A DNA stretch of 63,629 nucleotides, counting the filler, from Collodictyon triciliatum (taxonomy: Eukaryota): assembly GCA_043381765.1 (NCBI GenBank). It is 12 parts of 12 records of this genome, joined end to end, with 100 filler letters (N's around TTAATTAATTAA, not from the genome) between each part and the next. Parts side by side here need not be neighbours in the genome. Positions count along the whole stretch, not along the records: positions 1 to 5,246 come from JBHJMP010005349.1; 11 more parts are not named here. One strand, written 5' to 3'. This document shows positions 1-31,137 of this stretch, piece by piece. The translations under genes and the position numbers were made by a program. Within the stretch, counting starts at the first letter, position 1. Each line of letters starts with the position of its first letter. The notes beneath the pieces were generated by a model. That model ran no database searches, was not told the origin of the DNA, and saw nothing but the letters and a program-made list of their open reading frames with translations.

Positions 1-3000
1 TCACCGGGCGTCACCAAAGACCTGGGAATGGCCATATGGTTGGGAATACTGGGGGTGGCCACATGAGTCGCGTTGGTGCGGACGAGTTGCTGCATGTTCG
101 TGGGTTTCCTGAATCACCTGCGCGGATGCGTCTCTTTGTGCTAAGTCCGGCGTCGCTGCGGTTGGAGAGTGGCCGAAATTCTGCAATCAGAAACTGGAGA
201 ATGCGCATTGGAAAATGGATTGTCGAGACTTTATTATGGTTTCTTTCGTTATTGAAAAGCTAAAAAAATGCTCAAGTGTTTCAAATTGTTGTAATGGTAA
301 ATGGAGAAAATAAGAGATTCTCTTAATGACAATAATTGTGTAAATGGGGTACTCACCTGAAGTCCTTCGCGTCTGCACATGGACAGCAATAAGTTGAGTC
401 TCGTGTCCGCGATTCGACTTTGTTGCTCAATAAACAAGCAATTGGGCTTCGAATGTTCCCCATAATTGACACATAATGCTATTTTCACAAGGGAAATTCA
501 TTTTTTGTGCTCTATGCATGAATAAGCTTTCTGTATGTATTATAACAAAAAAACATTGACTAAGTGTATAGAGGAAAATGCAAGGTGCTCGAATTAAAGA
601 GCAATATAGAATATCTGATTGCTTAAGACTTACGGCTTTCGTATTCCGACATAGTGGAGAGCCTTTGCTGACTTTGCGTGTGTGAAGCAGACTTCGTCGT
701 ATTCGATAAGCAGGATATTGAGCTCCGAATGTTCCACATAGCTGACACAGAATCACTATTTTCACAAGGGAAATTTCAATTTTTATGCTCTATGCATGAA
801 TAAACCTTCAATATGAATTATATATATATATAAAACATCGACTAAGTGTGTGGAGTACAATGCAAAGTGCTTGAAGTGAAAGGCAAAATAGAATATCTGA
901 TTGCACAAGACTTACGGTTGTCGTATTCCGGCATACTGGAGAGCCTTCGAGGGTTGTGTGTGAAGCAGACGTCGTCGAAGTCCGGCATAGTGGAGAGCCT
1001 TTGCGGGTCTTGTGAAGCAGACTGCATCGTATTCCGGCATAGTGGAGATCCTTTGCGGGTCTTGTGAAGCAGACTGCATCGTATTCCGGCATAGTGGAGA
1101 GCTATTGCAGTGTGTGAAGCAGACTTCGTCGACGTTCGGCATAGCGCAGAGCCTTCGCGTGTCTTGTGTGAAGCAGACTGCGTCGTATTCCGGCATAGTG
1201 GAGAGCCTTAACGGGTTGTGTGTGAAGCAGACTGCGTCTCATCCCAACATAGTGGAGAGCCTTCAAGGGTTGTGTGTGAGAAGCAGACTGCGTCGTAATC
1301 ACGGCATAGTGGAGAGCCTTCGAGGGTTGTGTGTGCGAAGCAGACTGCGTTGTATTCCGGCATAGTGGAGAGCCTCTGTGTGTCTTGTGTGTGTGGAGCA
1401 GACTGCGTCGTATCCCGGCATAGTGCACAGCCTCTGTGTGTCTTGTGTGTGTGAAGCAGACTGCGTCGTCTTCCGGCATAACGCAGAGCCTTTGTGGGTC
1501 TTGTGTGAAGCAGACTGCGTCGTAATCACGGCATAGTGGAGATCCTTTGCGGGTCTTGTGTGAAGCAGACTTCGTCGTATTCCGGCATAGTGGAGAGCCT
1601 TAGCAGTATTTGTGTGTGTGAAGCAGACTACGTCGTATTCCGGCATAGTGGAGATCCTTTGCGCGTTTTGTGTGTAAGCAGATTTCGTCGTATTCCGGCG
1701 TAGTGGAGCCTTTGTGGGTCTTGAATGTGAAGCAGACTGCGTCGTATTCCGGCATAGTGGAGAGCCTTTGCGGGTTGTGTGTCTTGTGAAGCAGACTGCG
1801 TCGTATTCCAGCATAATGCACAGCCTTTGCGGGTCTTGTGTGAAGCAGACTGCATCGTATTCCGGCATAGTGAAGAGCCTTTGCGGGTTGTGTGTCTTGT
1901 GAAGCAGACTTCGTCGACGTTCGGCATAACGGAGAGCCTTCGAGGGTTGTGTGTCTTGTGTAAGCAGATTTCGTCGTATTCCGGCGTAGTGGAGATCTTT
2001 TGCGGGTTGTGTGTCTTGTGAAGCAGACTGCGTCGTATTCGGGCATAACGGAGCCTTTGTGGGTCTTGAATGTGAAGCAGACTGCGTCGTATCCCGGCAT
2101 AGTGGAGAGCCTTCGCGGGTTGTGTGTGAAGCAGACTTCGTCGTATTCCGGCATAGTGGAGAGCCTTTGCGGGTTGTGTGTGGAGCAGACTGCGTCGTAT
2201 TCCGGCATAGCGGAGAGCCTTCGAGGGTTGTGTGTCTTGTGTAAGCAGATTTCGTCGTATTCCGGCGTAGTGGAGATCTTTTGCAGGTCTTGTGTGAAGC
2301 AGAATTCGTCGGTTCTGGCATAGTGGAGATCTTTTGCAGGTCTTGTGTGAAGCAGACTGCGTCGTATTCCGGCATAACGCACAGCCTTTGCGGGTCTTGT
2401 GTGTGAAGCAGATTTCGTTGTATTCCGGCATAGTGGAGAGCCTTTGCGGGTCTTGTGTAAAGCAGACTGCGTCGTATTCCAGCATAATGCACAGCCTTTG
2501 CGGGTCTTGTGTGAAGCAGACTGCATCGTATTCGGGCATAGTGCAGATCCTTTGCGGGTCTTGTGTGGAGCAGACTGCGTCGTATTCCGGCATAGCGGAG
2601 AGCCTTCGCGGGTTGCGTGTGTGAAGCAGACTGTGTCGTATTCCCGGCATGGTGAAGAGTCTTCGAGGGTTGTGTGTGTGAAGCAGACTGCGTCGTATAC
2701 GGGCATAGTGGAGAGCCTTTGAGGGTTGTGTGTGAAGCAGACTGCGTCGTATTCCGGCATAGTGGAGAGCCTTCGAAGGTCTTGTGTGTAAAGCAGACTT
2801 CGTTGTATTTCGGCGCAATGGAGAGCCTCTGTGTGTCTTGTGAAGCAGACTGCGTCGTATTCCGGCATAGTGGAGATCCTTTGAGGGTCTGTGTGAAGCA
2901 GACTTCGTCGTATTCCGGCATAGTGGAGAGCCTTTGAGGGTCTGTGTGTGTGAAGCAGACTGCGTCGTATTCCGGCATAGTGGAGAGCCTTTGTGTGTGT

Positions 3001-4985
3001 CTTGTGTGTGTGTGAAGCAGACTTCTTCGACGTTCGGCATAGTGGAGATCCTTTGTGTGTCTTGTGTGAAGCAGGCTGCGTCGTCTTCCGGCATAGTGGA
3101 GGGCCTTTCAGGGTTGCGTGTGTGAAGCAGACTGCGTCATATTCCGGCATAGTGGAGAGCCTTCGAGGGTTGTGTGTCTCGTGAAGCAGACTTCGTCGTA
3201 TTCCGGCATAGTGGAGAGTCTTTGCGGGTTGTGTGTCTTGTGAAGCAGACTTCGTCGACGTTCGGCATAACGCAGAGCCTTCGCGGGTCTTGTGTGAGGC
3301 AGAATTCGTCCTATTCCGGCATAGTGCAGAGCCTTTGTGTGTGTGAAGCAGACTGCGTCGTCTTCCGGCATAGTGGAGAGCCTTCGAGGGTTGTGTGTGT
3401 GAAGCAGACTGCATCGTATTCGGGCATAACGCACAGCCTTTGCGGGTCTTGTGTGTGAAGCAGATTTCGTTGTATTCCGGCATAGTGCAGATCCTTTGCG
3501 GGTCTTGTGTGAAGCAGACTTCGTCGTATTTCGGCATAATGGAGAGCCTTTGCGGGTCTTGTGTGAAGCAGACTTCTTCGACGTTCGGCATAGTGGAGAG
3601 TCTTTGCGGGTTGTGTGTCTTGTGAAGCAGACTTCGTCGACGTTCCAGCATAGTGGAGAGTCTTTGCGGGTTGTGTGTGTGAAGCAGACTGCGTCGTCTT
3701 CCGGCATAGTGGAGAGCCTTCGAGGGTCTTGTGTGAAGCAGACTGCGTCGTATTCCGGCATAGTGGAGAGCCTTCGAGGGTTGTGTGTGTGAATCAGACT
3801 TCGTCGTATTCCAGCATAGTGGAGAGTCTTTGCGGGTTGTGTGTCTTGTGAAGCAGACTTCGTCGACGTTCGGGCATAACGCACAGCCTTTGTGGGTCTT
3901 GCGTGGAGCAGACTTCGTCGTATTCCGGCATAGTGGAGAGCCTTTGTGTGTGTGAAGCAGACTGCGTCGTAATCTGGCATAGTGGAGAGCCTTGCGGGTC
4001 TTGTGTGTCTTGTGAAGCAGACTGCGTCGTATCCCGGCATAGTGGAGAGCCTTCGCGGGTCTTGTGTGTGTGAAGCAGACTGCGTCATATTCCGGCATAC
4101 TGGAGAGCCTTTGCGGTCTTCGTGTGTGAAACAGACTCCATTGCTCAATAATCAGGGAATTGGGCTTCGAATGTTCCCATAACCCATCACAGATTGCTCT
4201 ATTATGGCAGAAGATATTCAATTATGCTCCTTTATTCTTCCTTTCAACCATTCCGTATGAATTATAACAAAAAACATCGTCTAAGTATGTGCTTGCACAT
4301 AACAAAATACGAAGAGATGTAAAATAGAATATCTGATTGCTTAAGACTTACGGCTTTCGTATCCGGGCATAATGCAGAGCCATTGCAATTCTTAGTGTGC
4401 GAAGCAGACTTCGTCGTTTGATAAGCAGGATATTGAGCTCCGAATGTTCACATGGCCGGACACATATCACACTATTTACACAAGGGAAATTCAATTTTTA
4501 TGCTCTATGCATGAATATACCTTTCTTCCGTATTAATTATAACAAAAACATCGACTAAGTGTATGCAAGTACAATGCAAGGTGCTCGAAGCGAAGAGCAA
4601 AATAAAATAAAGTATCTAATTGCACAAGACTTACGGTTGTCGTATTCGGCATAGTGGAGAGCCTTAGCAGTATTTGAGTGTGTGAAGCAGACTGCGTCGT
4701 ATTCCGGCATAGAGGAGAGCCTTCGAGGATTGTGTGTGAAACAGATTTCGTCGTATTCCGGCATAATGGAGAGTCTTTGCGGGTTGTGTGTCTTGTGAAG
4801 CAGACTGCGTCGTATTCCGGCGTAATGGAGAGCCTTCGAGGATTGTGTGAAGCAGACTTCGTCACATCCGGCATAGTGGAGAGCCTTCGAGGGTTGCGTG
4901 TGTGAAGCAGACTTCGCCGTATTCGGGCATAGTGGAGAGCCTTCGGGGGTTGTGTGTGAAGCAGATTTCGTTTTATCCCAGCTTT
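1..4985 (-). ncRNA. Putative spliced Pol II transcript made mostly of the repeat array (lncRNA-like or frameshifted repetitive gene)
   Basis: Minus-strand TATA at 5008-5017. GTAAGT donors at 4634, 4351, 915 and 633, each paired with an AATAG acceptor at an equivalent position (4472, 4199, 756, 479). CAG|GTGAGT donor at 356 with a TTGCAG acceptor at 181. No reading frame runs through all exons. Confidence 0.45.
634..4972. repeat. Tandem array of ~60-70 variant units of ~50-63 bp (consensus + strand GTGAAGCAGACTGCGTCGTATTCCGGCATAGTGGAGAGCCTTTGCGGGTCTTGT), interrupted by AT-rich blocks
   Basis: Units are directly visible: main block ~916-4137, single units at ~634-703 and ~4352-4417, and about 6 units at ~4635-4972. 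Length varies mainly in a (GT)n linker. Unit count is estimated from length. Confidence 0.97.
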
Positions 4986-5007
4986 GTTGGACTTGTTTAA
5001 TTTTTCT

Positions 5008-5017
5008 TTATATAGGG
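5008..5017 (-). promoter_or_regulatory. TATA box (CCCTATATAA) ~35 nt upstream of the first array unit
   Basis: The same 10-mer lies upstream of the M12 protease genes (31128-31137 and 28659-28668). Confidence 0.55.
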
Positions 5018-5064
5018 CCGATGAGTGATTTATCCATCTTCGCACCGATATGTTTTTTCTTTTA

Positions 5065-5212
<148 letters not shown>

Positions 5213-5246
5213 TTTTTTTTTTTTTTTACTTTTTTTAATTTTTTTT

Positions 5247-5346
5247 NNNNNNNNNNNNNNNNNNNNNNNNNNNNNNNNNNNNNNNNNNNNTTAATTAATT
5301 AANNNNNNNNNNNNNNNNNNNNNNNNNNNNNNNNNNNNNNNNNNNN
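5247..5346. other. Artificial scaffold linker (N44-TTAATTAATTAA-N44); also at 10591, 15935, 23174, 28514, 33853, 39190, 44655, 49991, 55327 and 60662
   Basis: An identical 100-nt cassette with stops in all six frames occurs 11 times. Most intervening pieces are 5235-5246 bp, in descending order. Confidence 0.98.
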
Positions 5347-5347
5347 A

Positions 5348-8300
5348 TATGGAAACAAGTCATGCATAGAATGTCCACAAGGCACCTGGAATGATAAAGA
5401 CGGTCAAGCATCATGCACATCATGTCCACCTGGCACATTCAACGATAAAACTGGGTCATTCAATCAATCATCATGCATTTCATGTCAAAACGGAAGCTAC
5501 AGCTTAAGTGGGAGTACATCATGCAGCTTATGCTTATCAGGATTCTATCAAAAAGAAGGAATAATGAAAGACCCAAAATCATGCTATGCTTGTTCAAAAG
5601 GCACATTCAACTCAAACTCCGGCTCATATGGAAATACATCATGTATTGAATGTCCAAAAGGCACTTGGAATGATAAGGATGGTCGGGCATCATGCACGTC
5701 ATGTCCAGCTGGGACATTCAACGATAAAACTGGCTCATATAATCTATTATCATGCATTACGTGTCCTAATGGAAGCTACAGCTCAGATAGAAGCTCATCA
5801 TGCAGCTTGTGTTCATCAGGATTCTATCAAAAAGAAGGAGTAATGAAAGACTCGAAATCATGTCATACATGCCCAAAAGGCACATTCAACTCAAACTCCG
5901 GCTCATATGGAAATAAATCGTGTATTGAATGTCCACAAGGCACTTGGAATGATAGAGATGGTCGGGCATCATGCACATCATGTCCAGCTGGTACATTCAA
6001 CGATAAAACTAAGTCATTCAATCAATCATCATGCGTATCATGTTCAAATGGAAGCTACAGCTTAAGTGGGAGTACATCATGTATCTCATGCTTATCAGGA
6101 TTTTATCAAAAAGAAGGAGTAATGAAAGACCCAAAATCATGTCATACATGCCCAAAAGGCACATTCAACTCAAACTCCGGCTCATATGGAAACAAGTCAT
6201 GCATCGAATGTCCACAAGGTACTTGGAATGATAAGGATGGTCAAGCATCATGCACATCATGTCCACCTGGCACATTCAACGACAAAACTGGCTCATATAA
6301 TCTATTATCATGCATCACATGTTCAAATGGAAGCTACAGCTTAAGTGGAAGTGCGTCATGCAGCTCATGCTTATCAGGATTCTATCAAAAAGAAGGAATA
6401 ATGAAAGACCCAAAATCATGCTACACTTGTCCAAAAGGCACATTCAACTCAAACTCCGGCTCATATGGAAAAAAGTCATGTACTGAATGTCCACAAGGCA
6501 CTTGGAATGATAAAGATGGTCAAGCATCATGCACATCATGTCCAGCTGGTACGTTCAACGATAAAACTGGCTCATATAATCTATTATCATGCATTACGTG
6601 TCCTAATGGAAGCTACAGCTCAGAAAGAAGCTCATCATGCAGCTTGTGTTCATCAGGATTTTATCAAAAAGTAGGAATCAAAAAGGACTCCCAATCATGC
6701 TATGCATGTCCAAAAGGCACATTCAACTCGATGTTCGGCTCATATGGAAATAAATCATGTATTGATTGTCCACAAGGTACTTGGAATGATATAAATGGTC
6801 AAGCATCATGCACATCATGTCCAGCTGGTACGTTCAACGATAAGGCTGGCTCATTTGATGAATCATCATGCATTTCATGTCCAAATGGAAGCTACAGCTC
6901 CGAGAGAAGCGCATCATGCAGTTCGTGTTCACCAGGATTCTATCAAAAAGAAGGAATCACAAAAGACTCACAATCATGCTATGCTTGTCCAAAAGGCACA
7001 TTCAACTCAATCTCCGGCTCATATGGCAAAAAATCGTGCATTGAATGTCCACAAGGTACTTGGAATGATAGGGAGGGTCAAGCATCATGCACATCGTGTC
7101 CAGCTGGTACATTCAATAACAAAACAGGCTCATTCAATCAATCATCATGTATTTCATGTCCAAACGGAAGTTACAGCTCTGAAAGAAGCGCATCATGCAG
7201 TTCGTGTTTATCTGGATTTTATCAAAAAGAAGAAATTATAAAAGACTCAAGCTCATGCTATGCTTGTTCAAAAGGCACATTCAACTCAAACTCCGGCTCA
7301 TATGGAAACAAATCATGTATTGAATGTCCACAAGGTACTTGGAATGATAGAGATGGTCAAGTGTCATGCACATCATGTCCAGCTGGTACATTCAACGATA
7401 AGGCTGGCTCATTCAATCAATCATCATGCATTTCATGTCAAAATGGAAGCTACAGCTCCGAAAGAAGTGCTTCGTGTATCCTATGCTCACCAGGATTCTA
7501 TCAAAAAGATGTAATCATGAAAGACTCGAAATCATGCTACGCTTGTCCAAAAGGCACATTCAACTCAAACTCCGGCTCATATGGAAACAAATCATGTATT
7601 GAATGTCCACAAGGTACTTGGAATGATAGGGAGGGTCAAGCATCATGCACATCATGTCCAGCTGGTACATTCAACGATAAGGCTGGCTCATTCAATCAAT
7701 CATCATGCATTTCATGTCAAAATGGAAGCTACAGCTTAACTGGAAGCGCATCATGCAGTCTGTGCTTATCAGGATTATACCAAAAAGAAGATATCACAAA
7801 AGATTCACAATCATGCTACGCTTGTCCAAAAGGCACATTCAACTCAAACTCCGGCTCATATGTAAACCAATCATGCATTGAATGTCCACAAGGTACTTGG
7901 AACGATAGAGATGGTCAAGCATCGTGCACATTATGTCCAGCTGGTACATTCAATAACAGAACTGGCTCATTTAATGAATCATCGTGCATTTCATGTCCTA
8001 ATGGAAGCTACAGCTCAGAGAGAAGCGCATCATGCAGCTTATGCTTATCGGGATTTTATCAAAAAGAAGAAATCACAAAAGATTCACAATCATGCTACGC
8101 TTGTCCAAAAGGCAAATTCAACTCAAAATCCGGCTCATATGGAAATACATCATGCATTGAATGTCCACAAGGTACTTGGAACGATAGAGATGGTCAAGCG
8201 TCATGCACATCATGTTCAGCTGGCACATTCAATAACAGCACTGGCTCATTTGATGAATCACCGTGCATTTCATGTCCAAACGGAAGCTTCAGCTCAGAAA

Positions 8301-10590
8301 GAAGCTCATCATGCAGTTTATGCTCATCAGGATTATATCAAAAAGAAGGAATTACAAAAGATTCACAATCATGCTACGCTTGTCCAAAAGGCACATTCAA
8401 CTCAAACTCCGGCTCATATGGAAACCAATCATGCATTGAATGTCCACAAGGTACTTGGAACGATAGAGATGGTCAAGCGTCATGCACATCATGTTCAGCT
8501 GGCACATTCAATAACAGAACTGGCTCATTTGATGAATCATCGTGCATTTCATGTCCAAACGGAAGCTACAGCTTAAGTGGAAGTTCATCTTGTAGCTTAT
8601 GCTTATCAGGATTATACCAAAAAGAAGATATCATAAAAGATTCAAATTCATGCTACACTTGTCCAAAAGGCACATTCAACTCAAACTCCGGCTCATATGG
8701 AAACAAATCATGTATTGAATGTCCACAAGGTACTTGGAATGATAGAGATGGTCAGGCATCGTGCACATCATGTCCAGCTGGTACATTCAACAATAAAACT
8801 GGCTCGTTTGATGAATCATCATGCATTTTATGTCCAAACGGAAGCTACAGCTCAGAGAGAAGCTCATCATGTAGCTTATGCTTATCAGGATTATACCAAA
8901 AAGAAGATATCACAAAAGATTCAAATTCATGCTATTCTTGTCCAAAAGGCACATTCAACTCAAAATCCGGCTCATATGGAAACAAATCATGCATTGAATG
9001 TCCACAAGGTACTTGGAATGATAGAGATGGTCAAGCATCGTGCACATCATGCCCAGCTGGGACATTCAGTAACAAATCTGGCTCATTCAATCAATCATCA
9101 TGCATTTCATGTCAAAATGGAAGTTACAGCTCAGAGAGAAGCTCATCATGCACATCATGTTCACCAGGATTCTACCAAAAAGAGGAAATCACAAAAGACT
9201 CAAAATCATGCCATGCTTGTCCAAAAGGCACATTCAACTCAAAATCCGGCTCATATGGAAACAAATCATGTATTGTATGTCCACAAGGTACTTGGAATAA
9301 TGATGATGGTCAAACATCATGCACATCATGTCCAGCTGGTACATTCAACAACAAATCTGGCTCATTCAATCAATCATCTTGCATGTCATGTCCAAATGGA
9401 AGCTACAGCTCAGAAAGAAGCTCATCATGCAGTTTATGCTTATCAGGATTCTATCAAAAAGAAGATATCATAAAAGACTCAAATTCATGCTATTCTTGTC
9501 CAAAAGGCACATTCAACTCAAAATCCGGCTCATATGGAAACAAATCATGTATTGAATGTCCACAAGGCACTTGGAATGATAAGGATGGCCAAGCATCGTG
9601 CACATCATGTCCAGCTGGTACATATAACAACAAAACTGGCTCATTCAACCAATCATTGTGCATCCAATGTCCAAACGGAAGCTTCAGCTCATCTGGAAGT
9701 GCATCATGCATCTTATGCTTATCAGGATTCTATCAAAAAGAAGGAATCACAAAAGATTCGGAATCATGCTATTCTTGTCCAAAAGGCACATTCAACTCAA
9801 AATCCGGCTCATATAGAAACAAGTCATGCATTGAATGTCCACAGGGCACTTGGAATGATAAGGATGGCCAAGCATCGTGCACATCATGCCCAGCTGGTAC
9901 ATTCAACAACAAAACTGGCTCATTCAACCAATCATTGTGCATTTCATGTCCAAATGGAAGCTACAGCTCAGAAAGAAGCTCATCATGCAGCTTATGTTTA
10001 TCAGGATTCTATCAAAAAGAAGGAATCACAAAAGACTCAAAATCATGTTATGCTTGTCCAAAAGGCACATTCAACCCAAACTCCGGATCATATGGAAATA
10101 AATCATGCATGGAATGTCCACAAGGCACATGGAATGATAGAGATGGTCAAGCATCGTGCACATCATGTCCAGTTGGTACGTTCAACAACAAAACTGGCTC
10201 GTTCAATCAATACTCATGCATTTCATGTCAAAATGGAAGCTACAGCTCAGAAAGAAGCGCATCATGCACATTATGTTCATCAGGATTCTATCAAAAAGAG
10301 GAAATCACAAAAGACTCAAAATCATGCTATGCTTGTCCAAAAGGCACATTCAACTCAAACTCCGGCTCATATAGAAACAAATCATGTATTGAATGTCCAC
10401 AAGGTACTTGGAATGTTAAGGACGGTCAAGCATCGTGCACATCATGTTCAGCTGGAACATTTAACAATAAAACTGGCTCGTTCGATATATTTTCGTGCAT
10501 TTCATGCCCAAATGGAAGCTACAGCTCAGAAAGAAGCGCATCATGCAGCTTATGTCCGACACGCTCAACCACAATTAAAGAAGGCTCCAA
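5348..10590 (+). CDS. Cys-rich repeat surface/secreted protein fragment (CxxC-xxG-(Y/F/W) ephrin-receptor-like/GCC2_GCC3 repeats); both ends missing
   Basis: One open frame across the whole scaffold, with about 18-19 units of 279 bp (93 aa). Each unit has five CxxC motifs and several N-x-S/T sequons. Confidence 0.92.
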
Positions 10591-11051
10591 NNNNNNNNNN
10601 NNNNNNNNNNNNNNNNNNNNNNNNNNNNNNNNNNTTAATTAATTAANNNNNNNNNNNNNNNNNNNNNNNNNNNNNNNNNNNNNNNNNNNNAAAAAAAGAA
10701 AAAGAAAAAGAAAAAGAAAAAGAAAAAGAAAAAAAAGAAAAAAAAGAAAAAAAAAGAAAAAAAAAAGAAAAAGAAAAAGAAAAAGAAAAGAAAAGAAAAG
10801 AAAAGAAAAAGAAAAAGAAAAAGAAAAAAAAGAAGAGGGAAATCTAATCAATGTATAATCCATATAATTTTTTTTTTTTTTTTGCACAATCAGTTTATGT
10901 CTGTTTTCAAATCGAGAATATAGAAACGAGAAACATCCTATCACGATAAAGGATGATTGGGCCGTCTGTTCTCTAAGCCTATCGAGCTCAACCCATCTTA
11001 ATTGATATCCATGGTATTTGTTCCGTTCTCAATTTCAGCATGGATGATAAC

Positions 11052-14000
11052 CTAGTCAAACAATGTATTCATCCACCGCCTTTGGTTATGAAGGACGATG
11101 CTATTGGTTCCATAGGCTTCTTCCAGAATGGGCAAAGCATCTTTTATGAGATTCTGAGCGTCCATCTTTTCTCCTACTTCATGTTTCATCCTTGCGAGCT
11201 GAATCAATAACCTACCCGAATGAGGGTGAACGTATCCAAGCAGTTTGGAGCGTCTGGAGAGCAGAGCAACCATTCTGTCGCAGCATTTATGATCTTTGCT
11301 CGAATTAAAGTCCAAAAGGCAGTTTTCCACTTCTAACGAAATCAAGAGAGGATGGTCATCTACCCACCACTGTTTTGCCGACTGCAGCGTCTCCAAAACA
11401 AAGCTTTTCGCTTCCCGACCCTCACCCCGAGTACGAAGAATGGAAGAAAGAATCAAAGCACAAGTTACTCTTTCCAACCGATAGCAACTCCAATCAGCAG
11501 ATTTAAATATGCCACACAAACTATTTGGGTTCTCCTCACCGCCAGAGTGATAGCGACATCCTATGAGAAGTATTTGCACCAAGATAACCAATGGATGTTG
11601 TGCCGAGTAGAGTTCACTTCGGATCGATAGTGCCCTTTCCAAATGCCCTGCACACAAAATTGTTTCTTCTAATTCCATATTTATTTGCGCAAGACCCTGG
11701 AAAGAATCAGCTAAATCACAATGTAAAGATGGGAGGGCGGATTCACGATTCACGAGTGACTGTCTGTATGAGTCAGATGCTCTAGAATACTGTCCCAAAT
11801 CTGTTTGCAACGACCCGATGAGGGATAAAGTTTGTGCTAGTCGTGGGTCCCGGGGATCTGATGATTTTTCTTGCAAGTTGAGAGCTTCCATCATTAAACT
11901 CAAGGCTGGGCGATATTTTCCCATCAAACGGTACACAGAAGCAGTTATGTGACATGCATATACTACTTTGATGTCGTCATCTGAGTGTCTTTCTCTTGTT
12001 TTCAATAAATGCGTTTCGGCACAAGACGATGCATACTTCCATTGCCCTATGGTCAGAAACACTTCAATAAAAACTACGCTGATGTCAAAATTCCAGTGAG
12101 GTTCAAACATCTCATGTATTTTTTTCACTAGTGATACGTCTTTTTGATATGCGAGACGCAAGATGATAGAATACTTCTTGGTATCGCTCACAAAACATTC
12201 GAATAAGTCACGTCTGAATAAGCGAAGAAGTGGCGAAGAATCCTTTAGACTGACCAAGTACTGAGCCAATTGAAAATACACATTTGCTTTTGTTTGTCCT
12301 TGAGGGATGTCACCCAGGCGATGAATAAGAAGATTCACATAATTCAAGCGAGGGTCACTCGGAAATTTGCGTTTTAGAATATCAAATGCCACTCTTCTGA
12401 TAAACCCATGCGAGAACTGAATGGTTCGGTCTCTAACCCGAAATAAAACCCCAAATTTCTTCAAGAAGGCAGAGTATATGCATGACGGTATTTCAAGCTG
12501 CCTGATGAGTTCAGACTCGTCTAATCCAGATGTTGCAGCAGAGAGATAACGGAAAAATCCCACGGCCACTGACTCATATTGGGCAAGAATCAGCTGTAAT
12601 ACACAATCGGTCAAATCATACATATTCCTGGCCTTTGACAACACCAAGGCGCGGTCTGTCATTTTTCCTTGCAGTAAATGCAACCCAACAGAAAACAACT
12701 GAGCAAAAAGTGGATTACCCTTGCAAACTGGATACATGATATCCACCACTTGTGGAATCCATGGATTGTCTGGCTCTATATTCATCATGAGAGTCTGTAT
12801 TTCACTCAAAGACCAAGAAGGTATTTCAAACACTTTCCAGCCTCTTGACTGAGCTATGGCAATATGATTGCTGTCAGAAGAAACCAAAACTATTTTTACT
12901 CCCTTTGAGAGCTTGTTTGGTACCCATGAGAATATCTGCTCATTTATGTTACTGCTTGCAAAATCGCCTAAATCATCTACAAAGAAGGTAGAAAATGACA
13001 ATTGGCTCTGAAGCAATAGGATATAACGGAAAAAGTTTGTATCCGGTTGTTCGTAAGTCCATACCCCTGGCACTTTGAGGATTTCCCTCTGCATCATGCT
13101 CGAAGTCAACTGTTTTTTAAATTTGTCTAGCATCGTTTCGAAATATGCGTTCTCGGGGTGTTTTGTAGTGGAGAAGTAGTATATCCCGCTGTCACCTTGG
13201 TCGTGTAGTTGGTGATAGTAATTTGTTAGCATGAAAGATTTCCCAGAACCAGGAGGACCATAAATCAAGACGGGTTGATTGGACGTGTCAATGCACTGCG
13301 TAAGTTGAAAAAGAGCCCCTTCCCTGTCAACCTGTTGCTCAGACGTATTGCATCCGAAAAAATCTTCCATGGATCTATGGCCTCCAGATAAACGATGCTC
13401 CAATATTTTAGTGTCACTCTTGAGTTTCTAGTAATAGTGGCATTTATTAGTGTTATAATTTATATATATATATATTTGTGGATCACATGTATTATGTAAG
13501 AGTGAGGCTACTGAACTGATATTATATCTTCACATATTCTCTCAACCAGCTGCTCTATTGAGCTATATTCAACAGTTGGGAACTTTGTGGAGACAAGGTT
13601 TCTCAAGGCGGGTTGTTTCTTTCGAGAATCAGCTGATGACCAATAATCCGGCTGTTCTTGGTCCTGATAATTATTGATAAAAGTTTTTTTTTTAGATGAA
13701 TGAGTGAGTCAAAGCAATGATAAAGGTTGAAGTTTAAATGGTACAATAGAAATGAAATAGGCGATGAAGTCGCTATGAAGTTACTTCAGATTTCATGTAG
13801 AAGAATCCACGGTTACAAGAAGGAATAGGTGCCATAGATGCCAGTCTTATCTAAAAATTAACAAAAAAAAAAATAATACATAAACGTAATCTACATATTA
13901 TTTCTCGATTCATATGATTCTAATCATAAGGAAAATACGATTATCAAACTATACTAATTATAAAGGGGCAAGTCCATTAAATCGTTCACTTAATGAACTG

Positions 14001-15427: not shown

Positions 15428-16035
15428 TGCGACCTTGGCGAGGAACGTGGTGTGAAAAGATTTCTTCATTTCTTACTTTCCTTCTCCTCTGACTTTTATA
15501 TTTTTTCTGGTTTCTTTACTTTTTCTCTCTCTCTCTCTTTTTTTTTTTAAAAAAAAATAACGGGTTGTTTTGATGGGTGATGAATGAAAGCGTTTTGCTT
15601 TGTTTCCTTCTGTGTGTTTATGGCTATGTGTAATTATCGACGGAGAGTTTGTGAGTCGATCTCCTTGGACTTTGTTTGAGTTCGGACTTTGATTCCCTTT
15701 TGGATGCGCGATTGGGAGAGAAAGAGAGAAAAAGGCAGCATCAAAAGAAATAAGAAAGAAAGAAAAAAAAAGTAACTATGTCCTGGCGCTGCGTCTCTAC
15801 AGTTACGTACATTGTCATTCAAACCAAAAGAAACAAAACAAAACAAAACAAAACAAAACAAAACAAAACAAAACAAAACAAAACAAAACAAAACAAAACA
15901 AAACAAAACAAAACAAAACAAAACAAAACAAAACNNNNNNNNNNNNNNNNNNNNNNNNNNNNNNNNNNNNNNNNNNNNTTAATTAATTAANNNNNNNNNN
16001 NNNNNNNNNNNNNNNNNNNNNNNNNNNNNNNNNNT

Positions 16036-18932: not shown

Positions 18933-20194
18933 ATGGGAGCCAACTCGTCAGCACTTTCGCCCGAAGAGCTTGCAGAAATGCAGGCCATCTCAAGCTGTAA
19001 GAACCACCATAAGAAAATACCTTCTCTCTTTTNNNNNNNNNNNNNNNNNNNNNNNNNNNNNNNNNNNNNNNNNNNNNNNNNNNNNNNNNNNNNNNNNNNN
19101 NNNNNNNNNNNNNNNNNNNNNNNNNNNNNNNNNNNNNNNNNNNNNNNNNNNNNNNNNNNNNNNNNNNNNNNNNNNNNNNNNNNNNNNNNNNNNNNNNNNN
19201 NNNNNNNNNNNNNNNNNNNNNNNNNNNNNNNNNNNNNNNNNNNNNNNNNNNNNNNNNNNNNNNNNNNNNNNNNNNNNNNNNNNNNNNNNNNNNNNNNNNN
19301 NNNNNNNNNNNNNNNNNNNNNNNNNNNNNNNNNNNNNNNNNNNNNNNNNNNNNNNNNNNNNNNNNNNNNNNNNNNNNNNNNNNNNNNNNNNNNNNNNNNN
19401 NNNNNNNNNNNNNNNNNNNNNNNNNNNNNNNNNNNNNNNNNNNNNNNNNNNNNNNNNNNNNNNNNNNNNNNNNNNNNNNNNNNNNNNNNNNNNNNNNNNN
19501 NNNNNNNNNNNNNNNNNNNNNNNNNNNNNNNNNNNNNNNNNNNNNNNNNNNNNAAAAAAAAAAACTCAAACTACAATATACTACCTCTGGCCACAAGTCG
19601 CTTTCCAGGTGAGCTGGTTGTGTAATATATATATATACAATTGCATGCTATTAACCCTATATAAATTTTTCAATTAAGATATTCCTCTTTAACAAAGTAT
19701 TAATCAGCTCATCAACCAAATAATATTCAGGTTTACGACATCGACTGTGATGGATTCATATCTAATGGAGAGCTCTTTCAGGTTCTCAAAATGATGGTTG
19801 GCAATAATCTCACTGATGTACAGCTTCAACAAATCGTAGACAAGACCATTATCGAAGGAGATAAGGACAAGGATGGAAAAATTTCCTTCGATGAGTTCAC
19901 TCGGGTGAGAAATTCCTTTGTCAAATACAAACTGGAATCTACCTTGTCAGTCTAGATCACGTTGGTCATATGATAGTAAGCTCAATTCTTCTCACTTGTT
20001 GTAATTCATTCGATTTTGCTTGTCAACCAGATGGTGGCCAACACTGACGTAGAGAGCAAAATGACGGTAACATTGATTTATGAGAAACACTTAAATTTGT
20101 CCCGCATCACTCCAGTATCTCATGGAACCTTCGCCTAGGCTTCGAATATCTTTAAGTATGACTACCTACTTATTCACAATAGATCAAGTTTTGA
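18933..20194 (+). CDS. CNB1: Calcineurin B regulatory subunit (multi-exon; middle lost in the N gap)
   Basis: MGANSS start; micro-exon (F)AFQ at 19598-19608; exon [56 protein letters not shown]; then [12 protein letters not shown] and a final IKF* at 20183-20194. Confidence 0.95.
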
Positions 20195-23790: not shown

Positions 23791-23808
23791 TCAGCTGCTT
23801 TCATCGTT

Positions 23809-23846
<38 letters not shown>

Positions 23847-26800
23847 TATTATTATTATCATCATCTCGTAACACAAAGTTTTCTGCTTTTGCAAACCACT
23901 CAGCAGCTCTCTCGGTGTCCTTCTCAACACTCCATCCATTCTCATAGCATTCAGCAATAATAGAAACAGCCTGTGGATATTTGTGTTCACCATAATCCTC
24001 GTCTACAATTTCAGCCATTTCTTTCAAGACATTGAATGCCTCTTTTGAACCTTGTTGTGCGTGTTGCTTCATTTTGTCAAAGTTTCCAGTCTTTTTTAGC
24101 CATTCAGCTACTTTCTCGATGTCCTTCTCAACACCCCATCCATTCTCATAGCATTCAGCAACAATAGAAACAGCCTGTGGATATTTGTATTTTTCACCAA
24201 TTTTGTCTCCATACTCCAGAATATCCTTCTTCATTTCAGCCATTTCTTTCAAAACATTGAATGCCTCCTTTGAGCCTTGTTGTGCGTGTTGCTTCAGTTT
24301 GTCAAATTTTTCAGCTTTTCCAAGCCACTCGATAGCTCTCTCGGTGTCCTTCTCAACATCCCATCCATTCTCATAGCATTCAGCCATCATTTGAGCCTGG
24401 AACGTGGTGAACTCACCCTGCTCACAATAGGCAGCAAAGTCCGCATCAAAGGAAGCAGCACCCTCTTGCAGGAATAGTTTCTTGTTCATTGCATCCAGTT
24501 CAGCTCTGTTGATATGAGTGTTCGCAGCTTCAAGCTTTCTTGGGCCGATAATTCGAACAGTTCTCACGTTCATTATTCTGCTTGTATCAATCATATTCAT
24601 CGCATCACTTGTACTATTGAATACTGTGATGACTTCTGGTTTATCTTTCATGACCAATTGGCTCTTCTCATTGTAGGTCGCTTCTGATATTTTCAGGCTG
24701 TGTATTTGGTTTCCTGTGGCTACATCCCAAATGCGTATCGTGCTATCTCCACTTCCAGAAGCCAGCCAATTTTCACCATTCGGTCCTTGAATACTGCAAA
24801 CACTCATGACAATATTTGTATGACCTTCTAATGTTTTGATTTGGTTTCCTGTGGCTACATCCCAAATACGTATTGTATTATCTCGACTTCCAGAAGCTAA
24901 CCAATTTTCACGATTCGGTCCTTGAATACTGCAAACACTCTTGACATCATCTGTATGACCCTCTAATGTTTTGATTCGGTTTCCTGTGGATACATCCCAA
25001 ATACGTATTGTTTTATCATAACTTCCAGAAGCCAGCCAATTTTCACCATTCGCTCCTTGAATACTGCAAACACTATTGACTGGCTCTGTATGACCTTCTA
25101 ATGTTTTGATTTGGTTCCCTGTGGCTACATCCCAAATACGTATTGTATTATCAACACCTCCAGAAGCCAACCACTTTTCACCATTCGGACCTTGAATACT
25201 GCAAACACTCATGACCCAGCTTGTATGACCTTCTAATGTTTTGATTTGATTTCCTGTGGATACATTCCAAATACGTATTGTTGTATCATAACTTCCAGAA
25301 GCCAGCCAATTTTCACCATTCGGACCTTGAATACTGCAAACACTACTGACATAATGTGTATGTCCTTCTAATGTTTTGATATGGTTTCCTGTAGCTACAT
25401 CCCAAATACGTATTGTATTATCTTCACCTCCAGAAGCCAACCACTTTTCACCATTCGGCCCTTGAATACTGCAAACACTCATGACCCAGCTTGTATGACC
25501 TTCTAATGTTTTGATTTGATTTCCTGTGGATACATCCCAAATACGTATTGTTTCATCACGACTTCCAGAACCTAGCCACTTTTCACCATTCGGTCCTTGA
25601 ATACTGCAAACGCTGACGACAGCTTCTGTATGTCCTTCTAATGTTTTGATTTGGCTTCCTGTGGATACATCCCAAATACGTATTGTCTTGTCTTCACCTC
25701 CAGAAGCCAGCCATTTTTCACCATTCGGTCCGTGAATGCTGCAAACACTCATGACAGCACTTGTATGTCCTTCTAATGTTTTGATTCGGCTTCCTGTGGA
25801 TACATCCCAAATACGTATCGTCTTATCATGACTTCCAGAAGCCAACCAATTTTCACCATTCGCTCCTTGAATACTGCAAACACTATTGACTGGCTCTGAA
25901 TGGCCTTCTAATGTTTTTATTTGGCTTCCTGTGGCTACATCCCAAATACGTAATGTTTTATCATAACTTCCAGAAGCCAACCAGTTTTCACCATTCGGTC
26001 CTTGAATACTGCAAACACGATAGACAGCGCTTGTATGTCCTTCTAATATTTTGATATGGTTTCCTGTGGCTACGTCCCAAATACGTATTGATTCATCACC
26101 ACTTCCAGAAGCCAACCACTTTTCACCATTCGGTCCTTGAATACTGCAAATACTCTTGACATCATCTGTATGACCCTCTAATGTTTTGATTCGGTTTCCT
26201 GTGGATACATCCCAAATACGTATTGTTTTATCACCACTTCCAGAAGCTAACCAATTTTCACCATTCGGTCCTTGAATACTGCAAACACTCATGACTGGCT
26301 CTGTATGACCTTCTAATGTTTTGATATGGCTTCCTGTGGATACATCCCAAATACGTATTGATTCATCATCACTTCCAGAAGCCAGCCAATTTTCACCATT
26401 CGTAACTTGAATACTGCAAACACTATTGACTGGCTCTGAATGGCCTTCTAATGTTTTTATTTGGCTTCCTGTGGCTACATCCCAAATACGTAATGTTTCA
26501 TCACGGCTTCCAGAAGCCAGCCAATTTTCACCATTCGGTCCTTGAATACTGCAAACACTATTGACAGAACTTGTATGTCCCAAAAACAAAGGCAAGCGAC
26601 CAAAATTAACGCCTTTCATATTTGCATGATCAAAAACACAGTTGGAAATGCACGCATTATAGAACAAAACACCCTCCAAGTTGGCACCAGTGAAGTCAGC
26701 ACCATCAGCAACAGACTGTGACATATCGGCATCTGGAATTTGAATCCCTCTGAAATCCATTCCACTGAATGAAACATCAGCATAGTTCAGAATTGTGATG

Positions 26801-28513
26801 GCATTTGATGCAGCTTGCGCTTTGCTTGCATCTACCTTGGACTGCTCAATAATTGAAAACAGATTGTCTTTGTAGGCATTGTCTTTGTTCACTTTTTCAC
26901 TCAGGTTGAGCAGAATGGCAGGCTCAAGCTTTTTATCCAGAACATTTGTCTTCACTTTTGATTTCATCACAGAATGAACAGCATTGAAAAGCTTGAAGCT
27001 TGGTGATTTCGCATCAGATTTTTCAGGCATAGAATTCGCGGCTTCAGAGGACTTTGGAACATTTTGAGCTTCAGTTGATGGTTGGGTAGTATCTTGATTT
27101 TCGCCACCGGAACCATTGATTTCATCTTTGATGTATTCAGCAGCAAAGAATTCGTAGAGCGATTTGTGGAAGAACTCATACGTTGTGGCACTAGATTTCT
27201 TAATGGGTGCACATCGCAATACAAAGACAGAGTAAGTTGGCTCACCATCAATCATATGGTTTGGATTAGGATGGAAAAATTCGTCATATTCGTGCTTCTT
27301 TGCTTTCCCCTCAACTTTGTCGTACTCCAAAGCAAGATGGCCTTTCTGGAACATGACTTCCGCAATATCTTTGCACTTCACCCATAGCAATGCTGGCAAA
27401 TCCTGAGGCATTTTCTGTTTCAATGACAAATTTTCTTCAAGCTTTTCTTTTTCGCGCTCAAACCAACTCTCAGAGAACTTCTTTAGAAAGTCTGTTCGCA
27501 GCATCTTTGCGTTATCTTTTGACTTCGACTCAGCTCTTTCCTTCAGTATGGACGGCAGGGTGGTGGCTGCCATGAAAATCATAAACGGAGTGACGGCCAA
27601 TTCGTCTAGCTCCTTGATTTTCTTCAACTCTTCCTCATACTTTTCTCCTTTTTCCCATCCTTCAATGGGATTTCTCTCAGCATACTTGTTGAAGTAATCA
27701 AGCCTTTGCTTAGTTTCAAAAGGTCTTAGATATATTTCATCCAGAGAGTATCCATGACTGGCTTTGGGTGCAAATAGCGATTGGTACTGAGATTTTTTGT
27801 CCAAAAACTGCTTTCGGCATCCAATCACAAACTTGCAGTTGGGCCATTCTTCAAGCTTATTTGAAATATAGAAAGATGTACCATTATCTTCAATCTCATC
27901 ATAACCATCCAGAAAAATGATGAATTTCATCTTTTTCAATTCTTTTATTTGGTCGATTCGAAAATCAGAGTCTGGGATGTAGAAGCTGTTTTTACTCTCA
28001 GAATGAAGCAGTTCCTCGATGGCGTTTTCTCTGGGCTTTTCCAATGAAGTGAGCGCAGCATACAAAGGAATATGCGTTCCGTATTTATGTTTATACTTTT
28101 CCCAAAGCAATCGCACAATAAACTGCTGTAACCATGATTTTCCAGAGCCAGAATCGCCAAGTATGAGCAGCACTTTTTCATTTCCAGATGTGATGAAATT
28201 CAGGATGTATTCTTGGGCATCAAACACTTTTCCTTTCTCAGCAACTCTTTCGGCTTGACCGGGAATATATGTGTTAAAACGACTTTTGAATTCTTCATTT
28301 CGAATGGTCTCCTCCTTGATATTCTCGACGATTTCTTGAATTGTTCTTTCGTCTTTACCAGCTTTTTCAAAAAGTGCAGTAGGTAATTTTGACTCTTTTG
28401 GCTTATATTTTGCCATTTCTTGCTTTTTTGATTCCACAAATCGATTAATAACCTCACTTTTCAACCATTTTTCATGACGTGTGATATGCTCCATTAATTC
28501 ACGGACTTTTTGT
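23791..28513 (-). CDS. NLR-like STAND protein: NACHT, pentapeptide repeats, 14 WD40 repeats, 3 SEL1-like repeats; 5'-truncated at the scaffold edge
   Basis: Walker A GDSGSGKS, Walker B IIFLDGYDE, FFHKSLYEFFAA, AASNAITILN followed by pentapeptides, 14 GH...WD units, and three AECYENGWxVEKD repeats. The frame stays open to the scaffold end; no introns. Confidence 0.93.
24700..26580 (-). repeat. 14 highly similar 135-bp (45-aa) WD40 coding repeats
   Basis: 135-bp periodicity (e.g. ATCCCAAAT at ~24724 and ~24859). Confidence 0.95.
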
Positions 28514-28613: not shown

Positions 28614-28730
28614 GTTGGGGTTGGATGTTATACGTTGTGTCTGGAGAGTGGCTGGGGGTTATATAGGGTGGGGTGGGGAGGGAGTTGTCTGCGGCGACTT
28701 TTCGGCTTTTCGAATGCGGGCTAGGTATTG
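28614..28730 (-). promoter_or_regulatory. Promoter/5'UTR of a third M12 protease copy whose CDS lies beyond the scaffold edge
   Basis: Near-identical to 31083-31190, including the TATA box. It ends just before the expected ATG. Confidence 0.8.
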
Positions 28731-29696: not shown

Positions 29697-31079
29697 TTAG
29701 CAGGTAAGGTTCTTGATGAAGCCGGTGACCTCGCTGATTGTGCGCGAGTGGAAGGCCATCTGGATGTTTGTCAGTCCACCAGAGCACTGATGGCAATACG
29801 ACATGATTGTTCCGCGGGTGGCGCTGCAGCCGGGGGTGGAGCCGCAGTAGTCAGCAGGAGGGTTAAGCTCGTGGGTGTGCGAACCTCCGAAGACGTGGCC
29901 GACCTCGTGGGCGAACACGTAGATGTCCCAGTTCTGTCCGTTGTAGTTCTGGACTGGGGTGGGGAAGTAGCCGACCATGTTGCCGTTGATGGCGTAGGCA
30001 TAGTTGGTGTTGCAGAGGACGCGAACATAGGCGATGCCTCCACCAAGATTCTTGGCAGAGACAAGGGCGGCCAGCGAGCGGCTGGGTGTGCTGGGGCTCC
30101 AGGTGCGACGCATGTAGTCCAGAGCCTGCGAGGCAGAGCAGCAAGGGTAGCCGTCGGGGCTGGTGAAGATCTTCATGTAGACAGAGGAGAGGCCTGATGC
30201 GAAGTCGCGGGCGTAGATCGAGTGGGTGGCACCAATCAGTGTCGAGTAGAAGCTGGCAGTGGCGTCGTAGCTGGAACTCTTCTTGCGGTACATGTCGTAG
30301 TCGACATCAGAGGCGACGCGGAAGACACGGCGAGTGCGACCATCAGCGGTGGTTCCAACAACCTCGGAGTACTGCATCATGGCCTCGCTGGGAACCGAGA
30401 GCGAGTCCGTTCCGTGGGTGGGGAAGTTGGGCATCTGGATGTTCATGCCAGTGGCCTCAAAGACAACAGAGGCGCGGACATTGGCGTTGGTGGACGACAG
30501 AGCGACAGCTTGCTTGCCAAGAAGGCTCACATACTCATCCATGCGCAGCTGGTCGGCGCTGATGTTCTCCTGCTCGTGTGGCTGCGACTCCCAGGGAGTG
30601 GACAGGATGAACGTGCGGTTGCCAATCTGAGCATACCCGTTCGAGCCGTGCACACTCAGGGACAGGAACACGTACGAGCCCTCGGCCTCGGCAGTAGCCA
30701 GGGTGCGGCCCTCCAGAGCAGAGAGCTTTCCGTGGAGCAGCATGACGCTGGCGGCCTTCTCGGCATCGCCTCCATCAGCCTCGGCAACGACGGAGAAGCG
30801 CTCCAGCGACAGGTCAGCCTCAACACCGACACCCAGAGGGAAGGCGGCCACGCGGAGTGGCTGGTTGAGGGGGACGCTGGCAAGGCCGGCTCCGGTGCGA
30901 AGAGTCTCGGAGAGGACCAGGCACAGACCACGGCCGCTGGGGTCGCGGCCGCAGCGGCTGAAGGGCGAGGCAACAGTCAGAACCTGGCTGCTGCTGGCGG
31001 GGCGGAAGGGGACGCTCAGGACGGCGCTGAGGGCGGCCAGGAGGACGAGGCCGACGGCGAGGGAGGAGCGGCGGACCAT
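29697..31079 (-). CDS. Secreted M12 (reprolysin-like) zinc metalloprotease, copy 1, intronless
   Basis: Signal peptide, HEVGHVFGGSH (HExxHxxGxxH), Met-turn GTIMSYC, and an upstream TATA box. Confidence 0.93.
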   Translation of the reverse strand: MVRRSSLAVGLVLLAALSAVLSVPFRPASSSQVLTVASPFSRCGRDPSGRGLCLVLSETLRTGAGLASVPLNQPLRVAAFPLGVGVEADLSLERFSVVAEADGGDAEKAASVMLLHGKLSALEGRTLATAEAEGSYVFLSLSVHGSNGYAQIGNRTFILSTPWESQPHEQENISADQLRMDEYVSLLGKQAVALSSTNANVRASVVFEATGMNIQMPNFPTHGTDSLSVPSEAMMQYSEVVGTTADGRTRRVFRVASDVDYDMYRKKSSSYDATASFYSTLIGATHSIYARDFASGLSSVYMKIFTSPDGYPCCSASQALDYMRRTWSPSTPSRSLAALVSAKNLGGGIAYVRVLCNTNYAYAINGNMVGYFPTPVQNYNGQNWDIYVFAHEVGHVFGGSHTHELNPPADYCGSTPGCSATRGTIMSYCHQCSGGLTNIQMAFHSRTISEVTGFIKNLTC

Positions 31080-31127
31080 TCTGTTGGGGTTGGATGTTTT
31101 ACATTGTGTTTGGAGAGTGGCTGGGGG

Positions 31128-31137
31128 TTATATAGGG
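31128..31137 (-). promoter_or_regulatory. TATA box of M12 protease copy 1
   Basis: CCCTATATAA ~50 nt upstream of the ATG, conserved in the paralogous promoter. Confidence 0.75.

Follow-up and report, generated by a model that had tools for sequence, protein, structure and literature searches.

NORAD, Xist repeat A and Firre are multivalent long non-coding RNAs (lncRNAs) of the same sort as the repeat-enriched architectural RNAs. The latter, among them human satellite III and PNCTR, are described in the cited parts of two sources as carrying many copies of short protein-binding motifs and as sequestering or concentrating RNA-binding proteins (PMC6224606, PMC7151548). In Drosophila, the hsr-omega gene is made up of two exons and a single intron, with 280-bp repeats over 5-15 kb and an open reading frame (ORF) of 23-27 aa, and, as far as the cited part of the source goes, its organisation is conserved without sequence conservation and its RNA is a platform for hnRNP-type proteins (PMC1636489). 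Here we describe a repeat locus of Collodictyon triciliatum, found on the minus strand of the first contig (1-5246, 5,246 nt) of a 63,629-nt stretch of assembly GCA_043381765.1 (the window); this contig carries most of one gene. We read the locus as the source of an abundant, spliced, probably non-coding repeat RNA of at least 4.2 kb that may serve as a multivalent binding platform; this statement as a whole is tentative, near an even call but short of one.

Judged by its organisation, hsr-omega (the RNA of the omega speckles) is the closest analogue of this locus. As far as the hsr-omega account drawn on here extends, both would be RNA polymerase II (Pol II) genes in which a spliced unique part and kilobases of short tandem repeats share one transcript, and in both the first ORF is tiny (23-27 aa in hsr-omega and 22 aa in the present locus). 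The difference is that here it is the exons that the 54-nt units fill; the units come 5' of the unique part, and four homologous introns interrupt them. The likeness is one of organisation; similarity of sequence is not expected, and no search was aimed at it. The architectural lncRNAs have identified protein partners, whereas the motifs CYAUGCC and AGUCUGCUUCAC of the present transcript match no motif that could be tested. Our best reading is a lineage-specific tandem-repeat lncRNA, another of a known kind.

The repeat array and its introns

Tandem Repeats Finder (TRF) placed the main array at 920-4137 (period 54, 58 copies, 80% matches) and six further copies of the ~54-nt unit at 4639-4971. 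With a 41-nt core, nhmmer found 69 full or partial units, every one on the minus strand. Corroborating these results, a 23-mer core with at most three mismatches matched 45 times in the window, all within 637-4937, against 0.00 expected, and by the same scan only one of the 13 window contigs contains the unit. About 66 units fall in the exon model, and about 85% of the spliced model is array. The first-pass annotation, which had proposed ~60-70 variant modules, described a real array.

Each unit joins a constant 41-nt core to a variable, CA-rich tail of 8-23 nt. Unit lengths range from 49 to 62 nt, with 54 nt in 20 of 57 units, and 29 of the 57 are not multiples of 3 (remainder 0 in 28, remainder 2 in 18 and remainder 1 in 11). 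Two boxes in the unit, CTATGCC and AGTCTGCTTCAC, are near-invariant with 0-7% variants per column; other columns reach 20-50%. Nearly every unit is distinct (56 of 57), and the 38 variable tails found among the 57 units are variants of one theme, (CA)n-AAGA-(CA)n-ACCC-[GT]C-[GA]AA. This variation of the tails is slippage plus drift, not guide-like diversity. We also found higher-order duplications within the array, 2-5 units long.

No sign of RNA structure was found in the array: a 331-nt stretch folded no better than its shuffles (z 0.41), and covariation among unit columns linked adjacent columns only, with no complementary pairs. Rfam gave no matches either at the gathering threshold or at E<=1, and the unit contains no C/D or H/ACA boxes. 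Exact-pattern scans gave 0 occurrences of the unit core and of a last-exon 20-mer in a metagenome contig collection, and 0 of the unit core in a viral contig collection.

Read along the minus strand, the locus begins with a leader and six units, followed by intron 1 (I1), a post-intron segment (S1) with one unit, I2, S2 with ~58 units, I3, S3 with one unit, I4, S4 with unique sequence, I5 and a unique exon. The four AT-rich interruptions I1-I4 start with GTAAGTCTT and end in AATAG, with a GC content of 0.30-0.32 compared to about 0.53 in the array; their GTAAGT starts, AATAG ends and lengths (Table 1) bear out what the first-pass annotation had reported. I1, I3 and I4 are about 82% identical to each other and I2 is 73-75% identical to them. 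Hence, the four are duplicates and not four independent coincidences. After each of them comes a segment S of ~55 nt that carries GGAACATTCGRAGCYCAAT, a sequence with four occurrences here and none elsewhere in the window. The unit's own GAAGTCTGCTT can be aligned with the donor GTAAGTCTT, so the introns and S segments look like diverged units. What was duplicated is a module of intron, S segment and unit.

Introner-like elements are families of near-identical introns spread through a genome, and the introns of this locus are like them in that several have nearly equal length and sequence. We rejected this candidate: BLASTN of I1-I5 against the other 12 contigs (58 kb) gave only matches of <=45 nt, mostly with E of about 0.01-0.3 (the best, over 18 nt, with E 6e-4). 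Unlike introners, the four homologous introns are, within the window, confined to this locus, and internal duplication of an intron+exon module therefore explains them.

The candidate TATA box, CCCTATATAA, occurs four times in the window against 0.07 expected. One site is upstream of the array at 5008-5017(-), one at 31128-31137(-) is immediately upstream of an M12B ORF, and one at 28659-28668(-) is in a near-identical paralogous promoter at a contig edge; hence, the 10-mer that the first-pass annotation had seen shared between the array and both M12 protease promoters is indeed at all three. The fourth copy, at 19655(+), lies on our reading within a calcineurin-B-like intron, so the 10-mer is not promoter-specific.

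RNA contigs and splicing

Parts of positions 1-1100 are shared by 20 of 22 listed public runs from 16 studies; none contains the whole of this interval or half of its words, and four are recorded as RNA. Four runs (X1, X4, X6 and X20) were aligned as assembled contigs, on 1-1100 only and at 90% likeness. X4 is recorded as metatranscriptomic cDNA, X1 is a DNA run, and the RNA status of X6 is a guess. Another 18 listed runs, including a size-fractionated wetland RNA run, were left unaligned and serve here as evidence of neither habitat nor expression. An intron left uncovered by RNA contigs was counted as evidence only where a contig joins across it, and no weight was given to the lack of array cover in X1.

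RNA-run contigs lie over the exons at 1-193, 357-477, about 630-703 and 889-1100. The 64 contigs of X4 give some depth in the exon bins and none in bins 223-333, 482-629 and 741-888, and the intron bins of X20 are likewise empty. The joint 193->357, which skips 163 nt, was found in two X4 contigs (shorter side 90 nt) and in one X6 contig. Since the skipped stretch has the ends CT..AC on the plus strand, and hence GT..AG on the minus, this joint fixes the strand of the transcript and places the fifth acceptor at 195-194. The first-pass annotation had drawn the fifth intron from 356 to 181; its donor at 356 stands, but its acceptor at 181 does not, and the junction 357/180 gives way to 357/193. 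Two AG acceptors lie 13 nt apart, CTCCAG (199-194) and TTGCAG (186-181), and the RNA contigs use the upstream one; TTGCAG may be an alternative acceptor.

For the repeat-type introns, X4 has the joints 477->637 and 458->637 across intron 4, and in three X6 contigs the end of a unit, read on the minus strand, runs straight into an S segment at a predicted exon-exon boundary. These boundaries are ...CC/TG... (the I1/I3 type; one contig, shorter side 43 nt) or ...GCC/CATT... (the I2/I4 type; sides of 22-31 nt). The weaker joints have sides of only 21-43 nt in contigs 90-95% alike, which come from sister copies or relatives. It is in such contigs that the boundary types of two junctions proposed in the first pass, 634/478 and 916/755, were seen. 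In the DNA run X1, a 235-nt contig (508-742) matches with 0 differences and retains intron 4. Three joints that go back along the sequence (967->416, 1066->626 and 667->633) were considered as back-splices or circular RNA and rejected, as the minus-strand order is an S segment and then units, just as at S2.

RNA-run contigs of 390, 250 and 207 nt span units and junctions; hence, long forms are present. Summed contig depth in the array bins reaches 285 (X4) and 4587 (X6), and in the unique last exon it is 5.2 (X4) and 121 (X6). One X4 contig reaches 101 nt past window position 1 and none of the exons contains AATAAA or ATTAAA. Hence, the transcript continues off the contig. In X6, differences number 8 in 196 positions of the last exon and 17 in 163 positions of intron 5 (Fisher p=0.022), a weak hint that the last exon is constrained.

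Spliced RNA contigs thus link repeat-type exons with unique exons, and the repeat does not lie outside a processed transcript, as a non-genic satellite would. Exon contigs and the GT..AG joint 357/193 agree, for the 3' third of the locus, with the earlier proposal of a minus-strand spliced transcription unit in place of a silent satellite, and we consider it very probable that the locus is such a unit.

A candidate platform and competing explanations

Each frame of the spliced model (4,191 nt) contains 8-12 stops, and no ORF extends through the model. Its first AUG opens a 22-aa ORF, as the first-pass annotation had noted along with the frame-breaking unit lengths, and the early AUGs give ORFs of 22 aa and 44 aa; the longest AUG ORF, 876 aa, stands behind several short upstream ORFs. 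A 1-nt indel separates S1 from S3, which the long ORFs therefore read in different frames. In the last exon, the X6 orthologue has +1, +1 and -1 indels, and X1, X4 and X20 have no indels. No homologue of the array ORF was found among near-length and shorter proteins, the last-exon frame (60 aa, ending GLW*) had 0 matches among 1.84 billion representatives, and Pfam gave nothing above its cut-off. Atlas returned a recognition of 851 (2300 is reached by 91 in 100 proteins of known families) and a best score of 0.80, with no relatives. The product is probably non-coding. The consensus unit is, at the same time, stop-free in all minus-strand frames, leaving ORFs of 873, 602 and 502 aa open; with all three frames open over hundreds of codons, automated gene prediction may yield spurious 500-900-aa "proteins" at this locus.

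About 66 copies of a CA-rich, unstructured ~54-nt module fill nearly all of the exons. It is from the two near-invariant boxes in each unit that we infer a platform. Pol II would initiate about 25-30 nt downstream of CCCTATATAA, and each module of the resulting RNA would present CYAUGCC and AGUCUGCUUCAC, about 13 nt apart, beside a CA-rich spacer. A single transcript would in this way carry about 66 equivalent single-stranded sites, to which one or a few sequence-specific RNA-binding proteins could bind, and the platform RNA would sequester or concentrate the proteins bound to it. Proteins of the hnRNP L type bind CA-rich RNA. The array would change in size by unequal exchange and CA slippage, and the intron with its post-intron segment would have arisen as a diverged unit, in keeping with the match between GTAAGTCTT and GAAGTCTGCTT. 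By analogy with the architectural lncRNAs, a multivalent protein-binding platform, in line with the protein scaffold that the first-pass annotation had listed among its options, is the mechanism we prefer, and we regard it as possible rather than probable.

Several observations weigh against a non-coding platform RNA. Nearly all of the RNA evidence consists of assembled contigs of metatranscriptomes together with X6, and most of these contigs are only 90-95% alike (45 of 64 for X4, 152 of 224 for X6), so they come from sister copies or relatives. Such contigs reveal no strand, ends or level, and joints with sides below 30 nt at 90% likeness can be artefacts; X6 also has a contig that retains intron 5 (depth 63). 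Regarding coding, the main array has 13 stops on the minus strand and 118 on the plus strand, and a random-substitution model predicts 31.8 ± 5.2 for the minus strand. With a column shuffle, which is the fairer model, 15.9 ± 2.0 stops are expected against the 13 seen, a difference that is not significant; hence, these counts do not demonstrate selection against stops. A frame of 249 codons continues open over three junctions and ends 10 nt short of the contig end, and the substitutions common to all four aligned runs (83 and 122) are, on our reading, synonymous in it. The 3' part of the transcript is off the contig, and a coding sequence (CDS) could be present there.

In the main rival reading, a passive minisatellite of ~54 nt expanded within exons of an expressed gene, whether that gene is coding or not, and has no function itself; any function would be in the unique 3' part, mostly off the contig. 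The unit variation described above is what such a repeat would leave, with drift and CA slippage making 56 of 57 units distinct and giving 38 tails on a single theme, and the same is true of the higher-order duplications and of the missing structure and covariation. It is also favored by an X4 contig in which the last exon has 2 differences in 193 positions compared to 8 differences and 2 gaps in 90 positions of the S4 exon. However, drift alone sits poorly with two boxes that barely vary while other columns vary freely, the array accounts for most of the spliced model, and a downstream CDS would be poorly served by a 5' untranslated region of 4 kb that contains 83 ATGs. We therefore consider the minisatellite unlikely, though it comes closest to the platform RNA that we prefer.

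It is improbable that the locus is a repeat-protein gene, in which ~18-aa Cys-containing repeats are translated and the reading drifts through three open frames. Genes of the Balbiani-ring type and mucin genes are highly expressed, of TATA type, and built of dozens of short Cys-containing tandem units; in them the unit length is a multiple of 3 and a single reading frame is maintained. The stop-free consensus with its three long ORFs, the minus-strand stop count below the random-substitution expectation, an ATG with A at -3 in every unit and the 249-codon frame all agree with translation. In contrast to the Balbiani-ring and mucin genes, 29 of 57 units here disrupt the frame, no ORF extends all the way through, and the first AUGs give only very short products. 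The frame is also unconserved between S1 and S3 and in the X6 orthologue, the avoidance of stops loses significance in the column shuffle, and, by our own sum, third codon positions are the least variable in the ATG frame. Three sequence searches ended without a homologue, Pfam stayed below its cut-off and Atlas recognition was low.

A polycistronic small-RNA precursor, that is, a spliced Pol II transcript cut to RNAs of ~54 nt or smaller that would be guide-like or resemble Piwi-interacting or small interfering RNAs, is very improbable. The layout of a 41-nt constant core and an 8-23-nt variable tail would fit, as would the high abundance of the RNA. Against it, neither hairpins (z 0.41) nor C/D or H/ACA boxes were found, Rfam gave no match at E<=1, the tails are low-complexity CA variants and not diverse guides, and the contigs of up to 390 nt run across units and junctions. 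For these reasons, including the absence of covariation, the guide-like array or small-RNA precursor that the first-pass annotation had offered was not upheld. Slightly less probable still is the specific form in which cleavage of the array yields about 66 unit-sized RNAs that all share a constant 41-nt handle, formed by the two invariant boxes, next to a short variable CA-rich segment; if true, it would be a eukaryotic handle-plus-variable-segment RNA array of an undescribed kind.

Least probable of all is a high-copy genomic repeat (a satellite or a sub-repeat of the ribosomal DNA-spacer type) whose occurrence in many environmental runs would stem from its DNA copy number and whose RNA signal would be read-through or contamination: the sharing of parts of 1-1100 by 20 listed runs from 16 studies (a weak point, as most are unaligned) and the chance that X6 is DNA (depth 121-4587 in a run of 51 million letters) speak for it, but a canonical GT..AG junction in a recorded cDNA library with empty intron bins, a unit present in a single window contig, a window without ribosomal RNA and the empty scans of metagenome and viral contigs speak against it.

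Contig setting, neighbouring genes and wider meaning

From its N runs and linkers, the window reads as 13 contigs of about 5.2 kb (Table 1). Since the contigs were joined, gene adjacency across them is artefactual, and the M12 genes are unlinked to the array, though they belong to the same assembly. The poly(A) tract that ends the first contig at a linker is probably an assembly break point outside the gene. Low-complexity A-rich sequence is found at most contig ends, as poly(A), (AAAAG)n, (AGAAAC)n or (CAAAA)n. The other genes of the window, with GT-AG introns and gene families of eukaryote type, are those of a eukaryote.

Table 1. Coordinates of the repeat locus, its contig end and the linkers, counted along the window
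Feature	Position	Strand	Remarks
Candidate TATA box CCCTATATAA	5008..5017	-	~36 nt before the array edge at 4971; the start is presumed to lie near 4985, about 25-30 nt downstream of the box
Exon 1, 5' end presumed	4635..4985	-	Short leader, one partial unit, six ~54-nt units
Intron 1, 163 nt	4472..4634	-	GTAAGT...AATAG, GC 0.32; predicted by homology to intron 3
Exon 2, 120 nt	4352..4471	-	Post-intron segment S1 and one unit
Intron 2, 153 nt	4199..4351	-	GTAAGT...AATAG; predicted by homology to intron 4
Exon 3, 3283 nt	916..4198	-	Segment S2, then about 58 units; RNA contigs deepest at 889-1100
Intron 3, 160 nt	756..915	-	GTAAGT...AATAG
Exon 4, 122 nt	634..755	-	Segment S3 and one unit; RNA contigs over about 630-703
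Intron 4, 155 nt	479..633	-	GTAAGT...AATAG
Exon 5, 122 nt	357..478	-	Segment S4 and unique sequence, end CAG/GTGAGT
Intron 5, 163 nt	194..356	-	GTGAGT...CCAG; firm RNA-contig junction
Exon 6, unique	1..193	-	GC 0.57
Homopolymer	5053..5246	-	Poly(A) when the minus strand is read, ~194 nt, just upstream of the candidate promoter; TRF period 1, 194 copies
Linkers	5247-5346, 10591-10690, 15935-16034 and 10 more sites		N44-TTAATTAATTAA-N44

Among the other genes of the window, the one that shares the 10-mer CCCTATATAA is an M12B reprolysin-like protease gene at 29697-31137 (-), with the 10-mer at its 5' edge. A near-identical copy (~70 nt) of its promoter at a contig edge, 28614-28700 (-), suggests a tandem paralogue. 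The relatives of the M12 protease are environmental sequences at 93%, then others at 44-49%, and next proteins of bacterial metagenome-assembled genomes at ~32%; to judge from the last, its origin may be bacterial. The calcineurin-B-like EF-hand exons, in one of whose introns the fourth copy of the 10-mer lies, are at 19560-20070 (+) and are separated by introns of about 122-125 nt.

Three further contigs have long intronless or open frames. At 5347-10590 (+), an open frame with 38 Ephrin_rec_like cysteine-rich repeats spans the whole contig and is open at both contig ends; it has a higher-order repeat of 279 nt with copies 86-89% alike. A 791-aa intronless P-loop NTPase (ATPase_2, AAA_16, NPHP3_N) with TPR_12 repeats, an NLR-like architecture, is encoded at 11052-13427 (-). 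At 23791-28513 (-) there is an intronless gene for a WD40 protein of ~1,570 aa, with a 135-nt repeat (x13.8, 86% alike) at 24704-26567. Concerted evolution of WD40 blades is known from NLR-like proteins, and the 135-nt repeats may reflect such concerted evolution of blades.

If the reading of the repeat locus as a platform RNA is true, C. triciliatum would have a very abundant lineage-specific repeat lncRNA, in a freshwater eukaryote, that is visible in environmental metatranscriptomes. With about 66 near-identical sites and embedded homologous introns, the locus would be a convenient natural model for protein recruitment by multivalent RNAs, and the same design would have a second use in showing how introns persist and duplicate within tandem arrays.

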